A stretch of DNA of 64,000 bases from Minisyncoccota bacterium (lineage in GTDB: Bacteria; Patescibacteriota; Minisyncoccia; Phycocordibacterales; UBA9973). Below, piece by piece: positions 1,294-23,847 of this stretch. The position numbers and the translations under genes are program-made. How positions within the stretch are numbered: position 1 is the first letter of the stretch; each line of letters opens with the position of its first letter. The stretch covers positions 25,483 to 89,482 of the forward strand of contig JBBABB010000002.1 in assembly GCA_041657885.1 (NCBI GenBank), read 5' to 3'. Below the pieces are notes generated by a model, which was not told the DNA's origin, did not search any database, and worked only from the letters and a program-made list of their open reading frames with translations.

Positions 1294-1337
1294 CTTCCTC
1301 CCCTGCTAAGGGTAGGTATCCAAAGGACGGAGGGGTT
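1294..1337. repeat. GC-rich element, family A half-copy (cTTCCTCCCCTGCTAAGGGtAGGTaTCCAAAGGACGGAGGGGTt).
   Basis: Related copies lie at 24076-24127 (reverse complement, inside cca) and 59572-59666 (full palindromic copy). Confidence 0.7.
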
Positions 1338-4300
1338 ATTGTTCTTTTATAATTAGAGTGATAACTTTTGTTACAACAGTTTTCTCTTTTGAACCTGAAG
1401 TATTTGAACATGTAAGGATGTAAGTAGTTGTTACGATTGGAGATACTATACGAGTACCTTGTTTTGTTCCCCCCGTATCAAATCCAGTACCAGTACAAGA
1501 ATCAGCTAGAGGTGAATCCCATGCGAGAGTTGATGACCTTCCTTCAAAGATTGTAGATGGATTTGCTTCAAATATAGTAGTATCACTTGGAGCATCTATT
1601 ACGCATTTTGCTGGTAGTGGTAATAGTTGCCAGTGTGTAGTAGGAGCACAGCCTGCTGTCACTGATAATGTTTTCAATGACAAAGCCCCGCTATATAAGG
1701 TGAGTATTTTCTCAACACCATAAACCAGAGAAAACGTTGCAGTTCCTGAAACTGCTGTCGTTGAAGGGACTATAGGACTAGTTCCATAACTTGCATCCAC
1801 TCTAGAATTACCAATTTTGTTTGTTACAGCCCAATCTAATTGAGCATCATTACAACTACTATTTCCTTCTGTAATTGAGCAACCACCCGAAGAAAGAGTT
1901 CCACTTGGAGTGACGCATTTACTCCCATCCCAAAATGTTTGAGGGGTGTCAGTACAGTCCGCATTAACTGTTTCTCTCTTTAATTCTACACCATTGTGAT
2001 AAAGATAAAATATTCTTCCTCCGCTAACTGATGTGTTTCCAACATTATAATTTACTGCGCCTGCGTTTGTTGATGAAACTCCTGTTCCTCCACCTCCGAC
2101 AATCGTATTACTAGGTTCTGTCGTAACAGCAGAAACAGAATTTACCGGATAAATTGTATTCCAACTTATATTGACAGGGCAACTACTTTCACCTTCACCT
2201 ATTTTACAACTAAGCGGATTAATCGTTAGTGTTCCCGACGGAGGATTACATATACCGTTTCCTAGAGTTGTATTTACCGGACACTCCGTATTTACCGTAA
2301 TCAAACCGGAAGTTCCTACCGCTGTTGTCGTCGTTGTATTTTGACATCGGATATAGTAACCGTAGGCACCAATTCCATTTGGAGAAGTATAAGTTTTTGT
2401 ATTGATTACATCTTTAGTTGCGGAAGTATATGCGGTTAAATCTGTTTGATTATTATCTAACAGTTTACATTGAACTAAACCTGAGTTTGTCGTCGGAGTG
2501 TAAGTGAAAGAAACATTTGTATTTGGAGTTGTATTGTAAGTTAGTGGAGAAGCAGTGACAGAGACAGTGACAGAGGTACAAGTTCCGGCAATAATTACTG
2601 AACCTGCTACACAAGTTGTACATGTTGGAGGGTTGGTTGCTCCATTTGCACAAGCAGTTGGTGTAAATGTAGCACTGATTGTATGATTGGCTGTGATGTT
2701 AGAAAATGTATATGAATTAGCAACAGTGATAGCACTTCCATCAACTGTTAGTGAAGCTATAGAATAATTAGTAATAGGAGTAATAGTATATATTTGATTA
2801 GAACCATATGCAACACTTGTTACGCCTGTTGGTGTTACTGTTCCATTTGCCCCTGATGAAGCTGTGATTGTTGGTCTAACTCGACAAGCTCCAGAAACAA
2901 AGTCACTACCTGTTGCACACGCCGTATTCACCGTAATCAAACCAGAAGTCCCTACCGCTGTTGTCGTTGTATTTTGACATCGAATATAGTAACCGTAGGC
3001 ACCAATTCCATTTGGAGAAGCATAAGTTTTTGTATTGACTACATCTTTAGTTGCGGAAGCATATGCGGTTAAATCTGCTTGATTATTATCTAACAGTTTA
3101 CATTGAACTAAACCTGAGTTTGTCGTCGGAGTGTAAGTGAAAGAAACATTTGTATTTGGAGTTGTATTGTAAGTTGTTGGAGAAGCAGTGACAGAGACAG
3201 TGACAGAGGTACATATTCCACCTATTATTGCAGAACCTGGCGGACAAGTTGTACACGTTGGATAGTTTGATGCTCCGTTTGAACAAATAAGCGAACAACC
3301 ATATATATTGCTAGGTCCAGTAGCATTATAATTAGTATCTGTAGCTGTTGTACATCCATACTTTGGGGCAGAACAAGTCGTTACTGTTCCACAAGTCCAT
3401 TTCCAGAGAAGTGAAGTATCAACAGGAGAACTTGAATTGAGCGTTCCAATTGTACAGGCACTTGTTCCAGTTGGTTCAGGATTTTGTGGGGTAGAACCAC
3501 TCCCGGGACCACAAGAATCAACAGGAACTGGAACATTGGTCCATGAGCTACAGTTATCGCCTTCATTCGATTCTGTAATCACCCCGCCACCCGCCGCTGA
3601 AGTCTTGTCGGCACAAACTCTGATTGAATACGTTCCAGCAGAACTAAATATATGACTAACACTTATAGTATTTGTTCCACTTGCAGCAAGAGTTGTCATT
3701 GAAGTAGATGTTTTGTCGGTAATAGTTCCTCCACCGTTGGCCGATGATGCAACTTGGAAGAAATTACTAAAGCTTGCACCTGTTGAAGCATTACCATTGT
3801 TTGTAATTGTTGAAGTGAAAGTTTGAGCAACGTTTATGTAAGCAGAAGATGGTGTTGGAGCTGAAGCTGTGAGATTAGGAGCAGGGCATGCTGGAGTTGT
3901 GAATGAGGCAGGAGTAACTGTCCATCCCGTTCCAGTTGTATTCGTCGCACAACCATACACATAGTATATAGTACTTGGAGTTAACCCCGTTTTAGACATT
4001 GTATATACCCCAGTTGTTCTACCTCCTTGGTCTACACAAGTTCCTGGTGAACCAATAGTAACAGAAGTCCCGCGGGCAGAAAGAGTGGCAGGAACACCTA
4101 AAGATGTAACATTTGCCCCAACTGTTGCGCTATTACAAGTTACAGAAGTTGCAGTTGGACTTGTGACAGTTGGAATAACTCCGACAGGTGCACATACTGA
4201 TCCATTCCAAGATGTAGCTACCGGAGTTTGAGAACAGCTAACAGTAATCGGTAAACTAGCAAGTATATTATCAACAGAAGTTCCATTATTTTCTCCATCA

Positions 4301-5859
4301 ACTTTATTTTTAGAAGTAAGAGTCACTGTTCCACTAGTCCCCCCTACAGAAATAGCACTTCCACTAAATGTTACATTGGTGTTACTACCAGAATTCCCAG
4401 AAACGACAGAAGTTCCTCCCGTTAAAGTAGTCGTTACCCCAGATTTTGGATTTGTTGTCCCCCAATTCATCGGAATATTACAACTTCCTTGTCCCGAAGA
4501 AATTGTACAGGCAGGTGAATACGTCGCAGCTAGAGTTCCAGATTGAGCCAATACATTTTGTATTGCACTTTTTGTAGTAGGAGAAGAAGAATTAGTACAA
4601 TCAAGCTGAAAATCGTTACTGTTGTTTTGTAGGCTTGAGACATTTTTTGGCTGGGGACTAAGATTATTATAAAATGTACCATATGTAGTACCATCAGTAT
4701 TATTTTTTAATATACAACCTCCAGAAGTAAGACCACTAACATTAACCACTAAATATGCCGTACCAATACCACTAGAGTCAGAACTACTTTTTTTAACTAA
4801 ATTTTTACTAGGATTATCTTTTTTTGTAAGTGTAACAGTCACAGTTTGAGAAATTAAATTAAACGTACCAATACATCTCACTGTTCTATTCATTGTAACC
4901 TGTCCATCGTTACAATCAGCATCATAAACCCAAGAACAGCCACTAGGACCTGAGCATGATAAACCAGTCCACCCAGCAAATGTTGAACCTGAACTTGGAG
5001 TAGCTGTAATATAGGCAGTTCGATTTAATAAATAATTCCCCGATCCGGTGAAAGACCCCGTGCCAGTTCCAGCAGATTCAGTTGAAAGTGCGTAGACATT
5101 GGAATCACAATTCATCCCATTCCATAAGGTACCAGAAGTACAAGAAGCCGTTGCCGAATCTGAAGATAACTGTACTCCGTTATAGAAAAGACGAAAGCTT
5201 CTAGTGGCTGTGCGATATTGATTAGTATCATCACCAACAATAGTTATAGGGTAAGTAGTACTGCCTGAAGTCAATGATGTTGGAGCTATTACATCAGTAT
5301 TCCAAGGAGTTGTTACAACTCTAGAAATTGCATTAGCAATAGGATTTGCTACACTCCAATTTATTTGGGAATTACAACTATTATATCCTGCCTGAACAGG
5401 ACAATCATTGGCATTTAAAACACCTGAGGGATTAGGCCCACCACCACCGATAGTAACAGTTGCTGACGCTGCAACTGAAGTATATCCAGACCTACTACAA
5501 GTTACAGTATAAGTTGTGGTTTGAGTAGGATTATAGACGACAGAACCAGAGGGAGTTGCTGCTTCAGCTTCTTTTATCCCTAATAAACTCGCAAACTTTT
5601 GTAGAAATGTTGATGGTACAAATGGTAATGGTAAAGTATTATTAATTCCTATAGGAACTCCTCCAGCATTAACAGTAATCGCACAAGTAGTGGCAATCGT
5701 TGATGACCAAGTAAGAGTTACAGGATTCCCTGATGCAACTGAAGTAGGAGATACACTGGCTTGAACGGTAATTCCAGTAAGAGCAGAAGCATTATTTGCA
5801 AAAAATAATGAACCGACCAAAATAATACTTAACACAAAAATTTTTGATAGATTTTTCAT
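1336..5859 (-). CDS. Giant secreted Ser/Thr/Gly-rich surface protein (1507 aa). It carries a CARDB-like module and an internal tandem duplication of about 110 aa.
   Basis: Signal peptide MKNLSKIFVLSIILVGSLFFANNASA. Motif STGASFSNFFQ ... YSIRVCADKTSAAGGGVITESNEGDNCSSW is shared with the proteins at 9320-11965 and 49670-52753. The C-terminal Ig-like module is homologous to that of 9320-11965. Confidence 0.85.
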   Translation of the reverse strand: MKNLSKIFVLSIILVGSLFFANNASALTGITVQASVSPTSVASGNPVTLTWSSTIATTCAITVNAGGVPIGINNTLPLPFVPSTFLQKFASLLGIKEAEAATPSGSVVYNPTQTTTYTVTCSRSGYTSVAASATVTIGGGGPNPSGVLNANDCPVQAGYNSCNSQINWSVANPIANAISRVVTTPWNTDVIAPTSLTSGSTTYPITIVGDDTNQYRTATRSFRLFYNGVQLSSDSATASCTSGTLWNGMNCDSNVYALSTESAGTGTGSFTGSGNYLLNRTAYITATPSSGSTFAGWTGLSCSGPSGCSWVYDADCNDGQVTMNRTVRCIGTFNLISQTVTVTLTKKDNPSKNLVKKSSSDSSGIGTAYLVVNVSGLTSGGCILKNNTDGTTYGTFYNNLSPQPKNVSSLQNNSNDFQLDCTNSSSPTTKSAIQNVLAQSGTLAATYSPACTISSGQGSCNIPMNWGTTNPKSGVTTTLTGGTSVVSGNSGSNTNVTFSGSAISVGGTSGTVTLTSKNKVDGENNGTSVDNILASLPITVSCSQTPVATSWNGSVCAPVGVIPTVTSPTATSVTCNSATVGANVTSLGVPATLSARGTSVTIGSPGTCVDQGGRTTGVYTMSKTGLTPSTIYYVYGCATNTTGTGWTVTPASFTTPACPAPNLTASAPTPSSAYINVAQTFTSTITNNGNASTGASFSNFFQVASSANGGGTITDKTSTSMTTLAASGTNTISVSHIFSSAGTYSIRVCADKTSAAGGGVITESNEGDNCSSWTNVPVPVDSCGPGSGSTPQNPEPTGTSACTIGTLNSSSPVDTSLLWKWTCGTVTTCSAPKYGCTTATDTNYNATGPSNIYGCSLICSNGASNYPTCTTCPPGSAIIGGICTSVTVSVTASPTTYNTTPNTNVSFTYTPTTNSGLVQCKLLDNNQADLTAYASATKDVVNTKTYASPNGIGAYGYYIRCQNTTTTAVGTSGLITVNTACATGSDFVSGACRVRPTITASSGANGTVTPTGVTSVAYGSNQIYTITPITNYSIASLTVDGSAITVANSYTFSNITANHTISATFTPTACANGATNPPTCTTCVAGSVIIAGTCTSVTVSVTASPLTYNTTPNTNVSFTYTPTTNSGLVQCKLLDNNQTDLTAYTSATKDVINTKTYTSPNGIGAYGYYIRCQNTTTTTAVGTSGLITVNTECPVNTTLGNGICNPPSGTLTINPLSCKIGEGESSCPVNISWNTIYPVNSVSAVTTEPSNTIVGGGGTGVSSTNAGAVNYNVGNTSVSGGRIFYLYHNGVELKRETVNADCTDTPQTFWDGSKCVTPSGTLSSGGCSITEGNSSCNDAQLDWAVTNKIGNSRVDASYGTSPIVPSTTAVSGTATFSLVYGVEKILTLYSGALSLKTLSVTAGCAPTTHWQLLPLPAKCVIDAPSDTTIFEANPSTIFEGRSSTLAWDSPLADSCTGTGFDTGGTKQGTRIVSPIVTTTYILTCSNTSGSKEKTVVTKVITLIIKEQ

Positions 5860-6038: not shown

Positions 6039-6968
6039 TCATTTCGGATGTATAAAGGTTTCCCTATTGGCATCTTTTTGACTGCCTGGATAATACACCC
6101 AGACTAAAGTGTCCTTTGTAAGTGTCATAATATTATAATTATTATATTCACACAAAGTCAACACAGATCCAGTCAAAGACCATGACCCCTCTTGAGTCTC
6201 ATTCTCACTGCCACAACGAACTTCACCGTTATCATAAACCCCTATTTTAGAAGGTGTAAGATAAAATTTTATCAAATCATCCTTCATGCATTCCCATATG
6301 TCTGCCTCAACCCAGGGATAACCAGATTCTTGTTGGAATTCCAACTTGATTTTTGACCATGGAGCTAAACAAAGTAGTTTTTCCTCATCTGTAAAGACAG
6401 GATCCTTAACTACAACGGTGACACTAGCTGTAGCTGACTTATTAGCTAATCCATAAACAGTTACAGTGTAATCTGTCGTAACCCCAGGTCCAACCTCAGT
6501 AGAACCAGAAAGACCATTTACTCCACCAAAGGTTGCCTTAATGGAAAGTGCATTTTCCGAAGTCCAACTGATAGTTGTCATTTCCCCTTCAAAAATTTCT
6601 GAGGGAGTAGCAGTAATAGCAACAGTCAGAACCTCAGTAGGCTCTTTTGCAACAATTTTTAGTTGCTGTTGAGCAGGAGCTATATCCATATTGCCTATTG
6701 GATAGGCGGTACAGGTAACAGTGATATTTTTATCTATCACTATTTCCTTGGTTCCTGAAAGAGGAACCGTGTCTTTGTTCACTATCACAATGCTAGCGTT
6801 TTCTACACTCCATCGGATAGTAACAACATCGCCAATCTCACACGAATCAGCCGAAGCTGAAAAAACACGTATAATTGGCTTAAGATTCACAACCGGTTCT
6901 TCTTCACATCCTGTAAACATAAGCAGGGAAAGAAAAAGACCCATCAGAAGAGAAAGCATCTTTTTCAT
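6039..6968 (-). CDS. Secreted lipoprotein with two Ig-like modules (309 aa).
   Basis: Lipobox LLMFTGC follows an N-terminal hydrophobic segment. Modules with conserved W and C match those in the giant proteins. Confidence 0.7.
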   Translation of the reverse strand: MKKMLSLLMGLFLSLLMFTGCEEEPVVNLKPIIRVFSASADSCEIGDVVTIRWSVENASIVIVNKDTVPLSGTKEIVIDKNITVTCTAYPIGNMDIAPAQQQLKIVAKEPTEVLTVAITATPSEIFEGEMTTISWTSENALSIKATFGGVNGLSGSTEVGPGVTTDYTVTVYGLANKSATASVTVVVKDPVFTDEEKLLCLAPWSKIKLEFQQESGYPWVEADIWECMKDDLIKFYLTPSKIGVYDNGEVRCGSENETQEGSWSLTGSVLTLCEYNNYNIMTLTKDTLVWVYYPGSQKDANRETFIHPK

Positions 6969-7030: not shown

Positions 7031-7128
7031 ATTTATCCCCACACCTATATTTCCATCAAAAATATATAACAGCAGGGTATTTTTACTAAAAAAGCAGAAT
7101 GATGGGAATATGGGTGTGGGGATTTATC
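7031..7128. repeat. P-family MITE-like element. TIRs atttatCCCCACACCTATATTTCCATC / GATGGGAATATGGGTGTGGGGatttatc.
   Basis: The inverted pair is visible. The inner sequence aaaaagcagaatgatgggaatat recurs in the copy at 20539-20683. Confidence 0.8.
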
Positions 7129-7207
7129 AAGATAAAATTAAACAAATCCGAACAATATGCCTTTGTACTAATTATCTAAGTAATTAAGCATCATGTCAAG
7201 GAGTTTT

Positions 7208-7350
7208 ACCCCCACACCCACTTTTTCATTGCTTTAATATTGTGCCATTAAAATATTCAGAAATATATAAAATATCTTTATAAATCAAGTATAAATAATA
7301 ATATTCCTAAAAAATAAAGCACAATGATGAAAAAGTAGGTGTGGGGGTTT
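7208..7350. repeat. P-family MITE-like element. TIRs CCCCCACACCCACTTTTTCAT / ATGAAAAAGTAGGTGTGGGGG with an AT-rich core of about 100 bp.
   Basis: A perfect inverted repeat of about 21 bp. Confidence 0.8.
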
Positions 7351-7360
7351 ATGCACTTTT

Positions 7361-7527
7361 TATCCCCACACCTATATTTTTATAGATTTTCATCTTTTAA
7401 ATAAAAAACTACTTAATTGGTATTTCTAATAAATTATCGCGTAAAAATAGACATTTTGTATTCAAAATAATAAAAATATAGGTGTGGGGATTTATCCCAC
7501 CTTGCCACCTATATTTTTATTGCAGGC
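7361..7527. repeat. P-family element (tatCCCCACACCTATATTTTtata ... AAAAATATAGGTGTGGGGATTTATC) plus an adjacent partial inverted fragment ccaCCTATATTTTTATTGCAGGC.
   Basis: Inverted TIRs are present. The 3' fragment shares TTTTTATTGCAGGC with the copy at 1209-1287. Confidence 0.75.
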
Positions 7528-7771
7528 TCCTTTTTATCCTAATTTTAAGTTGAAATAATGCCCTGCCGTCCTTTTTTAGAGACGATTCTCTTTTCCTTGC
7601 ATCACTCTCATCAAAATATGATTCATAATATCTAAGTTCAAAAGGACGACGACTTTTAGTGGAAAAAACTTTACCATTATTATGATCCGAGAGCCTGCGT
7701 CGTAAATCATTTGTTGAGCCAATGTAAATATTATTGTCTTTTTTACTTTTTAAAATATATAAGTAGAACAT
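7517..7771 (-). CDS. GIY-YIG nuclease-superfamily small protein (YhbQ/UPF0213-like, 84 aa).
   Basis: N-terminal motif YLYILKSKKDNNIYIGSTNDLRRRLSDHN is a classic GIY-YIG. The gene is flanked on both sides by same-orientation copies of the P-family TIR. Confidence 0.8.
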   Translation of the reverse strand: MFYLYILKSKKDNNIYIGSTNDLRRRLSDHNNGKVFSTKSRRPFELRYYESYFDESDARKRESSLKKDGRALFQLKIRIKRSLQ

Positions 7772-7800
7772 ATATTTATATTATATGATTTATGACTATA

Positions 7801-7826
7801 AAAATATAGGTGTGGGGATTTATCCA
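7801..7826. repeat. Solo P-family TIR (AAAATATAGGTGTGGGGATTTATCC). It contains a perfect DnaA-box-like nonamer TTATCCACA.
   Basis: Identical to the right TIR at 7473-7497. Confidence 0.7.
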
Positions 7827-7866
7827 CAGGGCTCCAAAACCCTTTCCATAGTAGCAAGGACGGTCC

Positions 7867-8583
7867 TTGCTAATTTTTTATAAACCTTCAAAATTATTTA
7901 TGCAATCATTGAGATATTGCATTAATATACCATTTATGCTAGGATGTGGACTGGAGATTAGGTTAAACCTAAGTTCCAGTAGATATATGAATAATAAAGC
8001 TAAAAAAGGGGAATATTTAGACATTCTATTAAGATCAAAGAATAGCGTATTTTCAACGAAAGATATCGCTTTGCTTTGGCGTGATGTTCAAACAACGGCA
8101 TCGCAAGTAAGATTGAACTATTATGTTAAAGCTGGGAAGCTTATTAGAATTCGTAGAGGTATTTATGCAAAAGATAAAAATTATGATAAATATGAATTTG
8201 CGACTAAGATTTTTAGACCCTCATATATAAGTTTTGAAACTGTCTTAGGTGCATCTGGTATGACTTTCCAATATTATGGAAATATTTTTATTGCTTCATA
8301 TTTAAAGAGGGAGATTAAATGTGACGGACAAACTTATTCTTTTGTAAAAATGAAGGATTCTATTTTAAGTAACCCAAAAGGAATAGATCAAACAGGTGAA
8401 TATGCTATTGCTTCAAAAGAAAGAGCTTTCTTGGATACAATTTATAGAAGTAAAAAGTATTATTTTGATAATCATTCTCCGCTTGATTGGGATAAGGTAT
8501 TTGAAATGTTGCCAATTTATAATAATAAAAAAATGGCAAAAACTGTGCAAAAATATTATAAGGATTATAAAACTACTAAATAA
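7867..8583 (+). CDS. AbiEi-family type IV TA antitoxin / transcriptional regulator.
   Basis: wHTH region carries the LIRIRRGIYAK (RRG.Y) signature and the gene abuts the AbiEii-like gene downstream. The 5' end is uncertain. An internal ATG (MNNKAKKGEYLDILL) about 120 nt in is the likelier start. Confidence 0.65.
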   Translation: MLIFYKPSKLFMQSLRYCINIPFMLGCGLEIRLNLSSSRYMNNKAKKGEYLDILLRSKNSVFSTKDIALLWRDVQTTASQVRLNYYVKAGKLIRIRRGIYAKDKNYDKYEFATKIFRPSYISFETVLGASGMTFQYYGNIFIASYLKREIKCDGQTYSFVKMKDSILSNPKGIDQTGEYAIASKERAFLDTIYRSKKYYFDNHSPLDWDKVFEMLPIYNNKKMAKTVQKYYKDYKTTK

Positions 8584-8585
8584 AT

Positions 8586-9290
8586 ATGACATTAAATTAT
8601 CCAATACATAAAAATATTCTCGTACAGATACTTATTGATATTTACTCGGATACGACAATTAGCCCATATTTAGGTTTTAAAGGTGGAACGGCTGCTTATT
8701 TGTTCTATGGACTTGATCGTTATTCTGTTGACTTAGATATTGATATTTTAGATGAATCAAAAGAAGATTACATCTTTGAACAAGTTGAAAAAATAGGGAG
8801 AAAATATGGAGAAGTAAAAGAATCTCAAAAGAAAAGATTTAATCTAATATTTTTAATATCGTATGAGAATAAAGAAAAAAATGCTCAGAATATAAAAATT
8901 GAGATTAATCGTAGGTCTTTTGATTCAAAATATGAAGTTCGTGCCTTTAATGGTATTTCAATGCTTGTAATGGTCAAAGAAGATATGTTTGCTCATAAGC
9001 TTGTAGCCATGCACGAACGACTAGGAATAACTAATCGTGATATTTTTGATGTATGGTTTTTCTCAAAAAATAACTGGGAAATTAATAAAGAAATTATAGA
9101 AAAAAGAACAGGAATGTCATATAAAAAATTTCTTGAAGTATGCATTAAAGAATTAGAAAAGATGAATAATAACAATATTCTCCATGGTCTTGGTGAGCTT
9201 ATAACAGAAAAACAGAAAGCTTGGGTAAGATCAAAATTAAAACTTGAGACAATTTTACAACTAAAATTAAGATTAGAATCCGAAAATTAA
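8586..9290 (+). CDS. AbiEii/AbiGii-family nucleotidyltransferase toxin (DUF1814-like), 234 aa.
   Basis: Motif FKGGTAAYLFYGLDRYSVDLDIDI is the GGTAL..R.S.DID nucleotidyltransferase signature. Start lies 2 nt after the upstream stop. Confidence 0.7.
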   Translation: MTLNYPIHKNILVQILIDIYSDTTISPYLGFKGGTAAYLFYGLDRYSVDLDIDILDESKEDYIFEQVEKIGRKYGEVKESQKKRFNLIFLISYENKEKNAQNIKIEINRRSFDSKYEVRAFNGISMLVMVKEDMFAHKLVAMHERLGITNRDIFDVWFFSKNNWEINKEIIEKRTGMSYKKFLEVCIKELEKMNNNNILHGLGELITEKQKAWVRSKLKLETILQLKLRLESEN

Positions 9291-9319: not shown

Positions 9320-11965
9320 TTACGTTTCTATAATTTTTATACTACTAACTGTAATGGTAGCTTGCTTAAATTCAGTTATGTTATCTCTTGTACAAGAAAT
9401 TTTATAAACAGTTGTTTTCAATGGAACTACCGTTGAGCTACCATTTGGGTTATTAGTTCCTGTACTCCATTCACCAAATCCTGTTTCATTAAGAGCTTTG
9501 CAATTATCAGCATTTGAAGTCCACATAAGAACAGAAGATCTTCCTTTAAATATTTTAGCTGGATTTGGGGTAAAGGTTATTTTTAATAAGTTTCCACCGT
9601 TACCACCAAAAATATTATCCCCGGTGTCCGTACCTGTACCTGTGCCTGTACCTGTGCCTGTACCTGTACCTGTGCCTGTATCTACACTTGTATCGTCACC
9701 AATAGACGCTACACACTTCCCTCCATCCCATCCTGTTCCACTTTCACAACTTGCCCCAACCGGCAGAATATCAAGTGGTAAACTATTATGATTAAGGAAA
9801 AATGTAGTTCCCCCATAAGCAACTGGAATGTTTTTCCTTTCTACTGGGAAAGTAGGAATGACAGCAGATGAAACGACAATTGTATTGTTTGGATTTTTAG
9901 TAACATTAGTTTCTTTTCCTGTTATAGGATTAATAATGTCTATAGTCAAAGTTGTCTCACAATCACTTGCGTTTTCTTCTATCTCACAATCATCTCCAGA
10001 AAGAGTTCCAACAGTACCACCTTCAGGCGAAATATCAACAGGAACCCATGCGCTACAATTATTGTCCTCAACTAACTCTATAACTATTCCTAGACCAGCA
10101 GCAGAATTTTTATCTGCACAAGCTCTAATATAAAATGTTCCAGTAGCTTCAAACGAAATCGATTGTAAAGCGACCGCTGTTTTATCAACTGCAAGAGCAG
10201 ACATCCCCGGTACATCATAATCAGTTAATGTTCCTTCCCCTTCTGGAAGTGTTGATGTTTGAAATAAATTGGTAAAACTTTTACCTGTTGAAATTGAGCC
10301 TTGATTTTTTATTGTTGAGGAAAAATTTGTTGGCGTTTTAACTATCACCGAAAGTGGAGATGGAATTGAAGCTATTAGATCAGGTCTTGGCTCACAGATT
10401 GTTCCATTCCAAATCGTTTTAGGTGCACATGTCGCATTTATCGTCGCACCATTTGGAGTAATAGTTTCTCCGTTGTGATTCAAAAAGAAAGTTGTATTTG
10501 GATAATCAACTGTTATATTTGGTTTTTCTACTGGGAAAGTATTGATAATCGCAGAAGGAACAACGAGTGTATTTGGTTCAGGAATATTTTTTGTGACATT
10601 TGTTGGTGCTTTTGTAACCGGCTTATAAACATTTAATGTCAATGTTGTCTCACAATTGCTTTCATTCATTTTTATAACACAATCATTTCCACTTATACTT
10701 CCACCATTTGGGTCAACTGGCATTGTAACAATAACTTCTAACCAATCACTACAATTATCCCCTTCATCACTTTCTGTAATTTCACCTAAACTATCTCTAT
10801 TGCTTTTATCTGCACAAGCCCTGACAAAAAACGTTCCTTCTTCACCAAATACATACACCTGAGAAGCAGTACCAGAAGCCCCTTCGTTTAATTTCCCCAT
10901 TGTGGTTGGGTCTAAACCTATAGCTATTGTCTCGTCTTCCTTATCAGTCGTTACTTGGAAAAAGTTTGAAAAACCTTTATTGGTAGAGACATCTCCCGTA
11001 TTGCTAATTATTGAGGTATATGAATTAGAAACACCAACTTCTACTTTTGCTGGAGTATAAGTTGGAACTGAAGCTTTAAGATTAGGTTTATTTAGAGGAA
11101 CTTCAGGATTTTCACTATTACCACATCCCCAATCTATTCCGTAATTTTTTGCAACACTAGCTGAAAACCAACATGAATAAGGTGTGCAGTTATTCCCTTC
11201 ATCTGACTCATTGACATCTGACTCTACATCTGTACAAAATCTTACTTTATACCCTGTATAAGTCCCATTGGCTCCATTATTCTCTGCTGGGAAAGTAACT
11301 GGGGAGAAATTTGAAACTGCGTGACCCGCAGCAACTATCATTGGCATCTTATATTTACCGGTAATGAGGGCATTTTCTTTCCATGTAGTATTAGGAATAG
11401 TTGCTGGCTCAATAATGTTACCATTTTGGTCTAACCTTGCAGTTTTAGAAATTATTTCGTAAGAATTATAAAAAGATGTTTTTGTGCTAGAACCAATAGA
11501 GTTCCACACTCCTGGTCGAAAAGTTACGGGGTTACCAGCAGGATATCTCGCATTATTGTATTGAGAAGAACCGTTCGAATTTATCGTCAAATCTGATGGC
11601 TGATAAGTAACAACAAGAGTAGGAGTTATTGTGGTTTTTGTTACTTCAAAATTTTTACATATTAATTCATACTCTGTTGTGATTACAGGATAAACTGAAG
11701 TTGAAACTGTGGTTGTAACTGTAGGGTTTGAAATAGGATGTGATGAAATAAAAATATTACTTCCACCGTTATAATCAAAAAAATCACAAGAACTAGCTCC
11801 AACTACTTTCCAGGAAAGTGTTGCTGATTGACCTTCAATAATACTAGTCGGACTAGGGGCAAAATTGGTGATAACAATATCTGTTACAGCAAAGGTTTTA
11901 CTTGCAATAAATAAAGAGCCAAAAACAAATAGACCTGACACAAAAATTTTTAATAGATTTTTCAT
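9320..11965 (-). CDS. Giant secreted surface protein (881 aa) with two CARDB-like modules and a (TG)n linker. Paralog of the protein at 1336-5859.
   Basis: Signal peptide MKNLLKIFVSGLFVFGSLFIASKTFA resembles the paralog's. Motifs FVRACADKSNRDSLGEITESDEGDNCSDW and YIRACADKNSAAGLGIVIELVEDNNCSAW are present. The C-terminal Ig-like module is homologous to the paralog's. Confidence 0.85.
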   Translation of the reverse strand: MKNLLKIFVSGLFVFGSLFIASKTFAVTDIVITNFAPSPTSIIEGQSATLSWKVVGASSCDFFDYNGGSNIFISSHPISNPTVTTTVSTSVYPVITTEYELICKNFEVTKTTITPTLVVTYQPSDLTINSNGSSQYNNARYPAGNPVTFRPGVWNSIGSSTKTSFYNSYEIISKTARLDQNGNIIEPATIPNTTWKENALITGKYKMPMIVAAGHAVSNFSPVTFPAENNGANGTYTGYKVRFCTDVESDVNESDEGNNCTPYSCWFSASVAKNYGIDWGCGNSENPEVPLNKPNLKASVPTYTPAKVEVGVSNSYTSIISNTGDVSTNKGFSNFFQVTTDKEDETIAIGLDPTTMGKLNEGASGTASQVYVFGEEGTFFVRACADKSNRDSLGEITESDEGDNCSDWLEVIVTMPVDPNGGSISGNDCVIKMNESNCETTLTLNVYKPVTKAPTNVTKNIPEPNTLVVPSAIINTFPVEKPNITVDYPNTTFFLNHNGETITPNGATINATCAPKTIWNGTICEPRPDLIASIPSPLSVIVKTPTNFSSTIKNQGSISTGKSFTNLFQTSTLPEGEGTLTDYDVPGMSALAVDKTAVALQSISFEATGTFYIRACADKNSAAGLGIVIELVEDNNCSAWVPVDISPEGGTVGTLSGDDCEIEENASDCETTLTIDIINPITGKETNVTKNPNNTIVVSSAVIPTFPVERKNIPVAYGGTTFFLNHNSLPLDILPVGASCESGTGWDGGKCVASIGDDTSVDTGTGTGTGTGTGTGTGTDTGDNIFGGNGGNLLKITFTPNPAKIFKGRSSVLMWTSNADNCKALNETGFGEWSTGTNNPNGSSTVVPLKTTVYKISCTRDNITEFKQATITVSSIKIIET
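9632..9700. repeat. Hexanucleotide microsatellite (cctgtacctgtg)n encoding the in-frame dipeptide run DTGTGTGTGTGTGTGTGTDTGD.
   Basis: Tandem CCTGTA/CCTGTG units are visible inside the CDS. Confidence 0.85.
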
Positions 11966-12121: not shown

Positions 12122-12171
12122 ACCCCCACACCTACTTTGGGATTCAATTATCAAAGTAGGTGTGGGGATGG
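12122..12171. repeat. Short P-family hairpin (ACCCCCACACCTACTTTG ... CAAAGTAGGTGTGGGGAT) in the divergent promoter / 5' leader region of nusA.
   Basis: A 17-bp inverted repeat with the same CCCCACACCTA core as the other P elements. Confidence 0.75.
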
Positions 12172-20538: not shown

Positions 20539-20683
20539 CTTGCCCCCACACCTATATTCCCATAGCTTTTATTCTGTTAAGCAAAATTCCTAATCATTTC
20601 ATATTTTTGATTGAATTATAGAGTTATAACCTTTTTTTATTGAAAAAGCAGAATAATGGGAATATAGGTGTGGGGGCTTGTAT
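20539..20683. repeat. P-family MITE-like element. TIRs cttgCCCCCACACCTATATTCCCAT / ATGGGAATATAGGTGTGGGGGcttg.
   Basis: A perfect inverted repeat of about 25 bp. Internal sequence is homologous to the copy at 7031-7128. Confidence 0.85.
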
Positions 20684-21962: not shown

Positions 21963-22033
21963 CGGGGTGTAGTATATCGGTAGTATCCATGTTTTGGGAA
22001 CATGAGGGCCGGGTTCGATTCCCGGCACCCCGA
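21963..22033 (+). tRNA. tRNA-Pro(UGG).
   Basis: Cloverleaf: acceptor CGGGGTG/CACCCCG, anticodon stem CATGT/ACATG with loop TTTGGGA, T-arm CCGGG-TTCGATT-CCCGG. The D-stem has two G-U pairs. Confidence 0.8.
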
Positions 22034-22143
22034 CATTATAAAAAGGATTCTCTCGTGAGAACTTTTTTCTTATTGTCACTCTTCCTTCCTTTTGATACAC
22101 TATATATATTAAAAGGTCACAAAATTAATTTGAAAATAATAAT

Positions 22144-22395
22144 ATGAACTTGAGAGAAATACTTGGTGGTCCCGCGCAAGATAAGGATGACATTTTAAAT
22201 TTTCTAGGGGAAAAAGAATATTCTATTGTAATAAAAAACGGTAAAAAACATTTACTTAAAAAAGGTCAACCAACCATGCGCACAGGTTATGATAGTTTTT
22301 TTATAAGGGATGGGGCTGTCTGGGGAAAAATCGGTATACAAGAGGACCTTATTATAGCTCCTGAAAAAATAGACACTAAAAAGAACCTGAGCTAG
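22144..22395 (+). CDS. Hypothetical small protein (83 aa).
   Basis: ORF only. Confidence 0.4.
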   Translation: MNLREILGGPAQDKDDILNFLGEKEYSIVIKNGKKHLLKKGQPTMRTGYDSFFIRDGAVWGKIGIQEDLIIAPEKIDTKKNLS

Positions 22396-22530
22396 TGGAA
22401 GAAATGCATGCTTAAATAAGAGTGAAATTAAAAACTATTTAAATTTGTAAAATATTAATTTTTCGGATATAATCAAAAACAATAAAGTGATAACAATAGC
22501 GGGCATTGCCCCGCCGTAGCTTTAGCGGAG

Positions 22531-22601
22531 GCGGGGTTAGTTAAATGGTATAACTCTAGTTTTCCAAACTAGTGTCAGGAGTCCGATTCTCCTACCCCGC
22601 A
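22531..22601 (+). tRNA. tRNA-Gly(UCC).
   Basis: GCGGGGT-TA-GTTA-AATGGTA-TAAC-T-CTAGT-TTTCCAA-ACTAG-TGTC-AGGAG-TCCGATT-CTCCT-ACCCCGC-A. Confidence 0.88.
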
Positions 22602-22610
22602 CAAATCAAA

Positions 22611-22793
22611 CTACAGACCTAAAGACCCCCTAACCCGTTCAATCTCTTCCTTCAGTTTTTCTTTATTCTCTTCTACTATTTTTTTCGATTGCATAGGGCC
22701 AAATTCTTTTTCTTGTTTTTCTTTTTGGACCTCTTTTCCTAGGACGTTATTTAATTCTCTTTGTGATCGTTCTAAAGATGCCATAATAAACAT
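22611..22793 (-). CDS. Hypothetical small K/E-rich protein (60 aa), co-oriented with yraN.
   Basis: ORF only. Confidence 0.35.
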   Translation of the reverse strand: MFIMASLERSQRELNNVLGKEVQKEKQEKEFGPMQSKKIVEENKEKLKEEIERVRGSLGL

Positions 22794-22800
22794 TATACCA

Positions 22801-23217
22801 CTACAATATTATATTATCCACAACCTTTACTCTCGCTTTTCTGTTGTCCAAATCTAGATAGACCACCAAAAGGTCAAATTGCCAATCAACATACCCCAAT
22901 CTTTTGCTTATAAGATAGGTCTCTACTACCCTTCTCAACCTTCTCATTTTCATTGGATGCATATTTTCCTCTGACCGTCCTGCACCATTCTCCAAAACTT
23001 CTTTTTGTGGATAAACATAATCTAAATTTGAAACACTTTTTGATTTAACTTCAATAAAATATCTTTTATCATTTTTTTGAGCAATAATATCAATTTCTCC
23101 CCATTTCTTTGTATAATTTCTTTCTAATATAGAAAAGCCATGTTTAATGAGAAACTTGCAGGCTACTCCTTCACCCAACTCACCTATTTTTTGAGAATTT
23201 GAGGTAAAATTTTTCAT
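22801..23217 (-). CDS. yraN: YraN-family (UPF0102) endonuclease.
   Basis: GELGEGVACKFLIKHGFSILERN ... GEIDIIAQKNDKRYFIEVKSK. Confidence 0.85.
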   Translation of the reverse strand: MKNFTSNSQKIGELGEGVACKFLIKHGFSILERNYTKKWGEIDIIAQKNDKRYFIEVKSKSVSNLDYVYPQKEVLENGAGRSEENMHPMKMRRLRRVVETYLISKRLGYVDWQFDLLVVYLDLDNRKARVKVVDNIIL

Positions 23218-23501
23218 ATTACATTTAAAATCGTTTCACGTGAAACTATATTAATATAATGGACACAAAAACAACAAAACCAAAATGGTCTTTATAAAAA
23301 TATCTTTATTTATCAAGGTATTATTGTCAAAACTTCAATTATTTGTCTCTCATAAAAATGACCTCAGTTGTGTCTTTTATAAACAATACACACATAGTTA
23401 TCCACAGAAGTCTTAATTTTAAAGTGTTCTGGATGTGGATAAAGGACTAATAAAGGTCAAACCGTAAATTAATTTTTCAAGTATAAAAAGACTTCTTTTT
23501 G

Positions 23502-23570
23502 TGCGGGATAGGAGAATCGGACTCCTGTCAAATGATTGGCAACCATTTGTTCTACCACTGAACCAATCCC
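23502..23570 (-). tRNA. tRNA-Gly(GCC).
   Basis: Reverse complement gives GCGGGAT-TG-GTTC-AGTGGTA-GAAC-A-AATGG-TTGCCAA-TCATT-TGAC-AGGAG-TCCGATT-CTCCT-ATCCCGC-A. Confidence 0.88.
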
Positions 23571-23724
23571 GCAAACTTAAAATAACTCATAAATTATAAT
23601 CATTTTTTGTAAAAAATGCAATTGTAATTTTATGCTTATTTTTAAAGCTTATTTACTAAAATATTAAATTAGTATATAATTAGATTTGTCAGTTGAGAAA
23701 ATTATTAAATAAATAATTACATAT

Positions 23725-23796
23725 GCACCCGTAGTGAAATGGATATCATGTCTGCCTTCGAAGCAGTTGTTCCAAGTTCGAGTCTTGGCGGGTGCA
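23725..23796 (+). tRNA. tRNA-Arg(UCG).
   Basis: GCACCCG-TA-GTGA-AATGGATA-TCAT-G-TCTGC-CTTCGAA-GCAGT-TGTT-CCAAG-TTCGAGT-CTTGG-CGGGTGC-A. Confidence 0.8.
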
Positions 23797-23847
23797 CCTT
23801 ATATAGTTAGATAGGGCTAGATAGGGCTTAAAGCCCTATCTGAAAAT

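Follow-up and report, generated by a model that had tools for sequence, protein, structure and literature searches.

Enzymes of the Slx1 lineage cut branched DNA, and the At-HIGLE homodimer, which introduces two coordinated nicks, acts on Holliday junctions and cruciforms (PMC9071465); cruciform cleavage has also been described for Hotaru, another GIY-YIG enzyme (bioRxiv 10.64898/2026.03.19.713005). The bacterial proteins of this type form a minimal ‘Slx1-like’ lineage (Dunin-Horkawicz et al. 2006, PMC1564403). For the bacteria of the candidate phyla radiation (CPR), a recent survey (Tsurumaki et al. 2024, PMC11270868) lists many short unclassified insertions in rRNA genes and, with reference to Brown et al. 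2015, a sparse occurrence of GIY-YIG open reading frames (ORFs) in such insertions; those insertions that carry the ORF are all distinct from group I and group II introns. Here, we describe an 84-amino-acid (84-aa) GIY-YIG nuclease gene and the palindromic hairpin elements around it in a 64-kb stretch of a Minisyncoccota genome (the window, 64,000 nucleotides in full, whose numbering is used throughout), together with fetched loci, labelled L###, of which 80 are genomic loci chosen because they carry relatives of the protein. Our results make it reasonably probable that gene and hairpins belong to a palindrome-ended transposon family in which this Slx1-like nuclease, the sole protein encoded, is the mobility enzyme, and from them we infer a transposition chemistry.

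The nuclease gene and its unit

The ORF occupies positions 7517 to 7771 on the minus strand (reading 7771→7517) and encodes a protein of the minimal Slx1-like/UPF0213 type. It is the sole gene of a 324-bp gene-bearing (‘autonomous’) unit at 7495 to 7818, also on the minus strand, of which 79% is coding and which is made up of a degenerate arm, the ORF, a conserved upstream box and an intact arm. The intact terminal arm, ATAAAAATATAGGTGTGGGGA at 7798 to 7818, lies 5′ of the ORF in gene orientation and matches the arms of the neighbouring gene-less element E3 (7363 to 7490) perfectly. The arm 3′ of the ORF, TCCCACCTTGCCACCTATATTTTTAT at 7495 to 7520, is intact in its inner 15 nucleotides (nt) and disrupted in its outer core, the canonical GGTGTGGGGA being changed to GGTGGCAAGGTGGGA. 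As an inverted-repeat pair, 7506 to 7520 and 7798 to 7812 are 100% complementary, and the stop codon lies inside the inner arm, with the final codons …AGC CTG CAA TAA running into it. When the unit is folded as RNA, the terminal stem closes the whole of it (z = -5.1).

A preliminary description of this DNA had reported the 84-aa GIY-YIG ORF between two repeat copies in direct orientation, with an inverted partial copy of the terminal repeat in between, and all of these features are present. The direct repeat, ATAAAAATATAGGTGTGGGGATTTATCC, is identical over 28 nt at 7470 to 7497 and 7798 to 7825, and the inverted copy at 7506 to 7520/7521 is perfect over 15 to 16 nt. The direct pair does not bracket the gene, however: the real bracket is the inverted pair 7495 to 7520 and 7798 to 7818, and the left direct copy belongs to the abutting E3, being its right arm plus the TTTA flank. 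A 22-mer of the direct repeat has three matches in the window and none in 100 shuffles, and the 13-nt core TAGGTGTGGGGAT is present in 13 copies, versus 0.72 expected, without exception in inverted pairs that delimit hairpin elements. The order at the locus is TTTA-E3-TTTA-unit-TTTA, where the TTTA at 7491 to 7494 is at once the right copy for E3 and the left copy for the GIY-YIG unit, and the second copy for the unit, at 7819 to 7822, overlaps a perfect DnaA box (TTATCCACA, 7820 to 7828). Such an order would result from insertion of one element into the tetranucleotide duplicated beside the other.

The conserved box, GTCATAAATCATATAAT at 7780 to 7796 (minus strand), contains a -10-like TATAAT that ends 8 nt 5′ of the ATG, and (G)TAAATCATATAAT is found 6 to 8 nt 5′ of the ATG in L004 to L013, L023, L164, L171 and L188. 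The box is a putative promoter that would give a leaderless mRNA; a simple sigma-70 consensus scan found no -35 partner for the box and does not support an internal sigma-70 promoter. The identical 84-aa protein is annotated in a Paceibacterota metagenome-assembled genome (MAG) at NCBI, and the locus is also present in three other assemblies. All four assemblies with this exact protein share the filled arrangement, so that no empty site was found for the window locus itself.

The protein is a single domain of 84 aa and carries no DNA-binding domain. Residues 1 to 71 match positions 1 to 74 of the 78 in the Pfam profile PF01541 (E=8.1e-20), the 588 homologues are mostly exactly 84 aa long, and Y5, Y16, G18, R26, H30, E62 and K66 are invariant among 37 sequences reaching down to 39% identity. 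Pairwise ratios of nonsynonymous to synonymous substitution (dN/dS) between 20 intact 84-codon genes, including copies within 23S genes, range from 0.05 to 0.25 with a median of 0.15, showing purifying selection on the ORF. Among proteins of solved structure, EF2693 (1YWL, E=3e-5) and BH0048 (1ZG2, E=2e-4), both of UPF0213, are closest in sequence, and SLX1 comes next. An AlphaFold2 (ColabFold) model with a predicted local distance difference test score (pLDDT) of 91 retrieved 1ZG2 and seven Slx1 nuclease-domain chains in Foldseek (template modelling score [TM] of 0.61 to 0.69, root mean square deviation of 1.6 to 3.4 Å) before I-TevI and UvrC. By sequence and predicted structure, the protein is thus closest to the Slx1/UPF0213 structure-specific nuclease group, with cleavage of branched DNA as its predicted activity. 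A phage origin was discarded, there being only four weak N-terminal matches in IMG/VR and weak, generic ones in PHROG and PADLOC. A LexA/SOS operator was discarded as well, as the one paper that links GIY-YIG, Patescibacteria and SOS concerns a different protein, a GIY-YIG-exonuclease fusion.

Recurrence and mobility of gene and arms

Of the 24 closest genome loci (L004 to L027, 55 to 85% identity), 20, from Paceibacterota, Falkowbacteria, Moranbacteria, Azambacteria, Portnoybacteria and other lineages, have the ORF between complementary CCCCACACC…GGTGTGGGG arms; the arms of L026 are CCCCTCACC/GGTGAGGGG, and the next clade (L028 to L035, L041 and L058) has CCCAGCACC/GGTGCTGGG instead. The layout of the window unit, consisting of arm, short leader, 84-aa ORF with its stop codon in the inner arm, and arm, is repeated in the 280- to 340-bp units of L004 to L035, L164, L171 and L188. 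In all, about 25 other CPR genomes carry close homologues of the gene between covarying inverted arms, the inverted-repeat scores at homologue loci are 5 to 17 standard deviations over shuffles, and the core GGTGTGGGG is common to 254 arm copies counted over the window plus every fetched locus. Synteny is not conserved around the GIY-YIG units: by their flanking 2 kb, 29 loci divide into 21 unrelated groups.

According to Rfam, the L028 unit is inside a 16S rRNA gene, about 70 nt from its 5′ end, and the units of L029, L030, L031 and L058 are inside 23S rRNA genes, in every case on the rRNA strand, while other units abut tRNA genes (L004 and L026) or lie between two of them (L077). We also observed two divergent GIY-YIG units per rRNA operon region in L029 (3608 to 3871 and 1358 to 1612) and in L028 (3216 to 3509), the second copies having 38 to 39% identity to the window protein. 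The second unit in the L029 23S gene has quite different, perfect 20-nt arms, and in general the arms of the second copies are very different yet perfectly complementary, e.g., TCCAGCCGTAGATTCAGTCT; these divergent pairs suggest several element lineages per genome. At 6695 to 6767 of L031, Rfam called a tRNA within the span of the 23S rRNA gene, presumably in another insertion.

More distant homologues in other CPR lineages (L057, L077, L038 and L040) and in Bacteroidota (L049 to L051, L056 and L067) are also bracketed by inverted repeats, and those in Sphingomonas (L081 to L083) lie between GC-rich arms of 31 to 35 nt that resemble repetitive extragenic palindromic (REP) sequences and differ between species yet are complementary. 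The bracketing of these distant homologues suggests that the link between gene and arms characterises the prokaryotic Slx1-like family and not this CPR clade alone. Downstream (3′) of the Bacteroidota homologue in L049, at 5259 to 5507, ten arm copies in alternating orientation with a period of about 62 bp form an array like that of a bacterial interspersed mosaic element. Among the other arrangements seen are three tandem GIY-YIG genes with copies of the palindrome TCCCGCCTCTGGCGGGA between them in a Margulisiibacteriota MAG (L038, 3524 to 4677) and a perfect 21-nt palindrome, CCCCTTCACCAGGTGAAGGGG, present in at least four copies at spacings of 150 to 450 bp in L148 (2108 to 3000), which resembles a variant arm pair (CCCCTTCACC/GGTGAAGGGG) nearly devoid of a loop.

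The pairing of the arms was studied in a gapless alignment of 38 distinct elements, in which 82.8% of the arm cells are paired, versus 64% with shuffled partners and 42 to 50% in slid controls. The ten inner arm columns, which were unused for selection, are 79 to 97% paired, with each column showing three to six pair types. Sequence is conserved in the outer motif CCC(C/A)(A/G)CACC, and pairing alone in the inner 8 to 12 bp. On the sense strand of the ORF-bearing units, there are 15 G:U versus 6 A:C mismatches, a weak hint that the pairing may matter in RNA too.

One mark of mobility is a duplication of the target. Using a 10-nt arm ([C/T]CCCCACACC) and a refined pooled set of 75 non-redundant elements, we found direct flanking repeats of at least 4 bp in 46 elements (exactly 4 bp in 45), compared to an average of 6.5 and at most 15 when the flanks were permuted 5000 times. 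The genome set gave 16 of 41 elements, with 1.6 expected, and an independent metagenome set fetched by arm sequence alone gave 35 of 62, with 4.6 expected. The duplication is restricted to the exact register 0, the off-register cells of the shift matrix holding 0 to 5. The duplicated tetranucleotides are TTTA/TAAA (16 elements), CAAG/CTTG (14), ATAA/TTAT (5), TTGA/TCAA (4), plus six more; such variety is typical of target duplications and would not be seen at a fixed element end. An empty site was also found, as L166 is uninterrupted at the orthologous position where L093 and L125 carry a 70-bp element. In the rRNA genes, the L031 23S gene has a 124-bp hairpin at a site occupied in L030 and L058 by a small native one, and the 16S unit of L028 stands in place of a short helix seen in L135 and L023. 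We are highly confident that the unit and the hairpins constitute one mobile family.

Most members of this family are gene-less. Elements of 40 to 140 bp that retain both ends of the unit outnumber the gene-bearing ones by about 10:1, and of the 105 metagenome loci retrieved by a 20-nt arm, only 6 have the gene, the 72 paired elements in the 105 loci being mostly 50 to 75 bp or 125 to 150 bp long. The common 70-bp form, arm-TATAGT…GCAGG…CCTGCAATA-arm, is in effect the gene-bearing unit reduced to roughly its first 25 and last 27 nt: arm+TATAGT is followed by GCCTGCAATA, which holds the final ORF codons with the stop, and by the second arm. No arm pairs 900 to 5000 bp apart were present in any fetched locus (about 1.3 Mb), so that nothing larger than the GIY-YIG ORF is enclosed, and a conventional autonomous partner with transposase-sized cargo between the arms is ruled out in these loci. 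The arms of gene-less elements match those of a GIY-YIG unit in the same locus at 14.6 of 20 positions versus 11.3 of 20 for units elsewhere, a value reached in 44 of 5000 permutations; the support from this likeness is modest because some of the loci are related.

The AT-rich window (31 to 41% G+C), which is part of a Candidatus Paceibacterota (CPR/Patescibacteria) genome, has six complete gene-less elements. Three of them stand to the left of the unit with TTTA duplications: E1 (87 bp, 7036 to 7122; flanks 7032 to 7035 and 7123 to 7126; fold z = -6.0), E2 (139 bp, 7209 to 7347; flanks 7205 to 7208 and 7348 to 7351; z = -6.6) and E3 (128 bp; flanks 7359 to 7362 and 7491 to 7494; z = -6.75). 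E3 has 22-nt arms with 100% complementarity, and its first 39 nt match the upstream end of the GIY-YIG unit at 82%. E1 is strain-polymorphic: L001 is 98.8% identical to the window over the region, and most indels and many substitutions are inside this element. Elsewhere are a 70-bp element at 1213 to 1282 (CAAG at 1209 to 1212 and 1283 to 1286; z = -10.6), which is of the ‘TATTGCAGGC…GCCTGC’ type and retains both ends of the unit; a 134-bp element at 20543 to 20676 (CTTG at 20539 to 20542 and 20677 to 20680; z = -8.4); and a minimal 44-bp hairpin at 12124 to 12167 (z = -7.2), which has no duplication and abuts a possible nusA ATG at 12168. As single-stranded DNA, each of these elements forms one long hairpin with a terminal stem of 16 to 23 bp and z values of -6 to -10.6. 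Internal deletion of the GIY-YIG unit can be recognised as the origin of E3 and of the 70-bp type at 1213, and E1, E2 and the elements at 12124 and 20543 seem to be relatives sharing the unit’s ends, of the kind known as MITEs (miniature transposable elements with inverted repeats). In agreement with this, the window elements are 44 to 139 bp long with arms of 16 to 23 bp and no ORF, five of the six have a target duplication, and the 70-bp type and E3 share their termini with a longer gene-bearing parent.

The hairpins were rejected as intrinsic terminators, since most have no T tract on either strand and a scan flagged only arm fragments and an unrelated terminator at 7852 to 7872, and also as known RNA families, no Rfam family reaching the gathering score for the hairpins or the unit; between 6900 and 7950, Rfam gave sub-threshold matches to generic hairpins (miRNA precursors) only. 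In L016, L018, L021 and L025, the right arm GGTGTGGGGG is located a few bases 5′ of the following gene’s start codon and could function there as a G-run resembling a ribosome-binding site or as a hairpin in the leader.

The arms are also found next to DnaA boxes. In about nine independent contexts, 15 of the 254 arms adjoin (C)TGTGGATAA, the perfect DnaA box in reverse complement, including 7820 to 7828 in the window and arms in L013, L088, L090, L116, L117, L124, L127, L161, L164, L166, L171, L172, L179 and L181, and this adjacency is far over chance. The abutting box is perfect or near-perfect (TTATCCACA, read as CTGTGGATAA from the opposite strand), supplies the duplicated target with its ATAA/TAAA end and resembles an element end with its flank (GTGTGGGG followed by ATAA); either recognition of a pseudo-end or a preference for DnaA-bound DNA may underlie the adjacency. 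The base outside each repeat tends to match the terminal base of the arm, so the target resembles R-NNNN-Y, which is the junction of two abutting elements, and back-to-back elements share one duplication, as do E3 and the unit; L006 and L007 have tandem arms. The shared duplications, the R-NNNN-Y target and the abutment of DnaA boxes all fit ‘pseudo-end’ recognition. Farther along the window, four perfect DnaA boxes within 630 bp (22814 to 23442), among four tRNA genes (21963 to 23798), mark a candidate replication origin or DnaA-regulated region, and the cumulative GC-skew minimum and the gene-strand switch are nearer 6 to 12 kb, not 22.8 to 23.4 kb. A replication origin at the unit was rejected: a perfect DnaA box abuts it, but the box cluster of the window is at 22.8 to 23.4 kb.

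On its other side, the unit adjoins a plus-strand pair at 7867 to 9290 encoding an AbiEi antitoxin and an AbiEii nucleotidyltransferase toxin (type IV toxin-antitoxin/abortive infection), with the terminator-like hairpin at 7852 to 7872 in between. The region is flanked by genes for two very large repeat-rich secreted or surface proteins on the minus strand, one of 1507 aa (1336 to 5859) and one of 881 aa (9320 to 11965), the latter with a (GT)n-encoded Thr-Gly tract close to its C terminus.

Proposed mechanism and alternative explanations

The nuclease, probably as a dimer, would recognise the terminal palindrome, folded as a stem or four-way junction, together with the outer CCC(C/A)(A/G)CACC motif and nick just outside the arms, at the boundary between arm and flank. 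It would cut short targets with a 4-nt stagger, mostly TTTA/TAAA and CAAG/CTTG, with a preference for targets that resemble an element end, such as the flank of an existing copy or a DnaA box. Host polymerase, ligase and repair would then finish the insertion and fill in the 4-bp duplication, and the gene-less copies would be served in trans by the same nuclease. In classical intervening sequences (IVSs) of rRNA, the bounding stem is processed by RNase III. In the rRNA genes studied here, RNase III would probably excise the insert from the transcript at the terminal stem in a similar manner, and the insertions would be tolerated because the insert is removed.

Several considerations weigh against assigning mobility to the nuclease. 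A hydrolytic GIY-YIG nuclease cannot itself perform strand transfer, and integration must therefore use host functions, for which reduced CPR genomes may hold no obvious candidates. The co-inheritance of gene and arms would be equally expected if the gene were stable cargo, and the covariation of the arms could stem from homogenisation in a hairpin intermediate or from selection at the RNA level. About 40% of the elements have no clean duplication, the 23S sites represent the replacement of a native hairpin and not a simple insertion, and the counts are not fully independent, as many loci come from related metagenome bins. The window copy, with its damaged arm, may be immobile or crippled. The prokaryotic Slx1-like proteins have, moreover, been regarded as vertically inherited repair enzymes (Dunin-Horkawicz et al. 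2006, PMC1564403), and cutting or mobilisation of the arms by the nuclease is something that we infer from sequence comparison.

The most serious competitor, to which we nevertheless give a low probability, is that the hairpins are moved by an enzyme encoded elsewhere and that the GIY-YIG ORF is a passenger captured in the loop, perhaps beneficial in some other way. Such an enzyme could act in trans from outside the 64-kb window and the loci of up to 15 kb, it would account for the strand transfer that is beyond a hydrolytic nuclease, and most copies are indeed gene-less. Those gene-less copies are, however, deletion derivatives of the gene-bearing unit, and the 1.3 Mb of loci contain no larger arm-bounded unit. 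A passenger is also difficult to reconcile with the same small ORF being the sole cargo between very different arms in CPR bacteria, Bacteroidota and Sphingomonas and with the strong purifying selection on it even within rRNA genes. Less probable still, in our view, is that none of this is mobile DNA and that the arms are an RNA device, i.e., an RNase III, mRNA-stabilising or translational stem, for a housekeeping repair nuclease, the gene-less hairpins then being regulatory REP-like sequences. The sense-strand units in rRNA helices, the covariation of the arms as a stem with G:U exceeding A:C, the ATG within the stem in several lineages and the frequent hairpins in 5′ leaders, e.g., before nusA, would all suit such a device. 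Against it stand 4-bp duplications of variable sequence in exact register, empty orthologous sites and 21 unrelated contexts; in the window subfamily, the -10-like box is inside the left arm, so that the unit’s own transcript would lack that arm, and a role of the RNA in rRNA is compatible with mobility and no substitute for it.

The preliminary description had proposed that the nuclease gene rides with or mobilises the repeats in the manner of a homing endonuclease, or else is a bystander in a repeat hotspot, and had named as counter-evidence family copies that never accompany GIY-YIG genes and orthologs in repeat-free conserved synteny. The association itself is borne out, as homologues elsewhere nearly always lie between such arms, and this counter-evidence did not materialise because the homologues are bracketed by arms and spread over 21 different contexts. 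The comparison with homing does not hold up. A classical free-standing homing endonuclease gene, copied by recombinational repair into one specific target with the repeats as unrelated neighbours, is suggested by the GIY-YIG fold being a known homing fold, by weak PHROG and NCBIfam matches to homing and intron endonucleases, and by the GIY-YIG ORFs among the CPR rRNA insertions of PMC11270868. We consider it quite improbable for a protein of only 84 aa that has no DNA-binding domain and is structurally nearer Slx1 than I-TevI, given that there is no intron, intein or long specific target, that the insertion sites are many and dissimilar with 4-bp duplications, and that the window contains no group I or group II intron (Rfam). 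The bystander, an ordinary chromosomal gene in a repeat hotspot, can be dismissed with near certainty: the four elements within 800 bp and the degenerate downstream arm of the gene would fit it at this locus, but gene and arms are found together again in about 25 further genomes, in contexts unrelated to one another.

Comparison with known systems

We found no account in the literature of a MITE, REP or transposon associated with GIY-YIG in prokaryotes, although our coverage is incomplete and prior work may exist, and neither CPR bacteria nor GIY-YIG come up in a large MITE survey. The relatives in rRNA genes are very likely the same GIY-YIG insertions that are listed in PMC11270868, the available parts of which make no mention of inverted arms, 4-bp duplications, gene-less derivatives or spread outside rRNA. 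A transposon driven by the nuclease would be a new catalytic class among bacterial DNA transposons and an extremely compact autonomous element, with 324 bp and 79% coding. It is possible, and we put it forward tentatively, that we are dealing with a class of prokaryotic DNA transposon not recognised before, whose mobility enzyme, a minimal Slx1-like GIY-YIG protein of about 84 aa, acts on a palindrome hairpin or cruciform and generates 4-bp duplications. In that case, the units of about 320 bp would be among the smallest autonomous mobile elements known to us, and units and MITEs together would be behind many non-intron CPR rRNA insertions, giving a concrete origin to short insertions with or without a GIY-YIG ORF that recent surveys have left open. 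The widespread bacterial UPF0213/Slx1-like proteins, now filed under ‘function unknown or DNA repair’, would on the same tentative footing be nucleases of selfish elements and not repair enzymes. This poses the question of whether a structure-specific nuclease and host repair are able to drive transposition. On the practical side, the hairpin copies give rise to broken assemblies and to variable rRNA-gene lengths in CPR metagenomes.

With pairs of insertion sequences (ISs) and MITEs, the family shares terminal inverted repeats, a short target-site duplication, presence/absence polymorphism and numerous gene-less internal-deletion copies with the ends of a rarer gene-bearing unit. It differs in that its only protein is the 84-aa GIY-YIG nuclease and not a DDE, HUH, serine or tyrosine transposase, in that the gene-bearing unit is only about 320 bp and in that the inner arms are kept as pairing and not as sequence; the unit encodes none of the transposase classes (DDE, DEDD, HUH, serine or tyrosine) by which ISs are recognised in the ISfinder sense. 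The REP doublets (REPINs) and their REP-associated tyrosine transposases (RAYTs) similarly combine abundant intergenic palindromes with a rare nuclease gene flanked by inverted palindrome copies, have hairpin DNA as the probable substrate and find a parallel in the GC-rich REP-like arms of the Sphingomonas homologues. In contrast to that system, the enzyme here is GIY-YIG and not HUH/Y1 (GIY-YIG being the only Pfam match), the GTAG or CGTC tag is missing, copies carry a 4-bp duplication where IS200/IS605-type chemistry makes none, and there are several gene copies per genome with clear spread to new contexts. The enzyme class sets the family apart from both systems, despite the functional likeness.

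The rRNA IVSs resemble the relatives at the tips of 16S and 23S helices, which have a long bounding stem, sometimes an ORF, and are introns of neither group I nor group II. Most of the family is intergenic, however, as is the window copy: the window has no rRNA gene, and the location within an rRNA gene helix that defines an IVS is seen in the relatives in L028 to L031 and L058. Likewise, no covariance model of a group I or group II ribozyme core reached the Rfam gathering score in the window. Like the free-standing GIY-YIG homing endonucleases (T4 Seg and I-TevI-like), the gene appears to be a selfish nuclease gene able to spread as a small cassette, but here there is no DNA-binding domain or single long target, and there are duplications, a terminal palindrome and MITE derivatives. 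In the protein itself, the likeness is greatest to UPF0213 (1YWL and 1ZG2), Slx1 and At-HIGLE, with which it shares a minimal single domain, the same catalytic residues and, across the Slx1 nuclease domain, TM scores of 0.62 to 0.69; the literature presents those proteins as vertically inherited, with functions in repair or recombination or none that is known, whereas here the same domain is encoded in a mobile cassette bounded by repeats.

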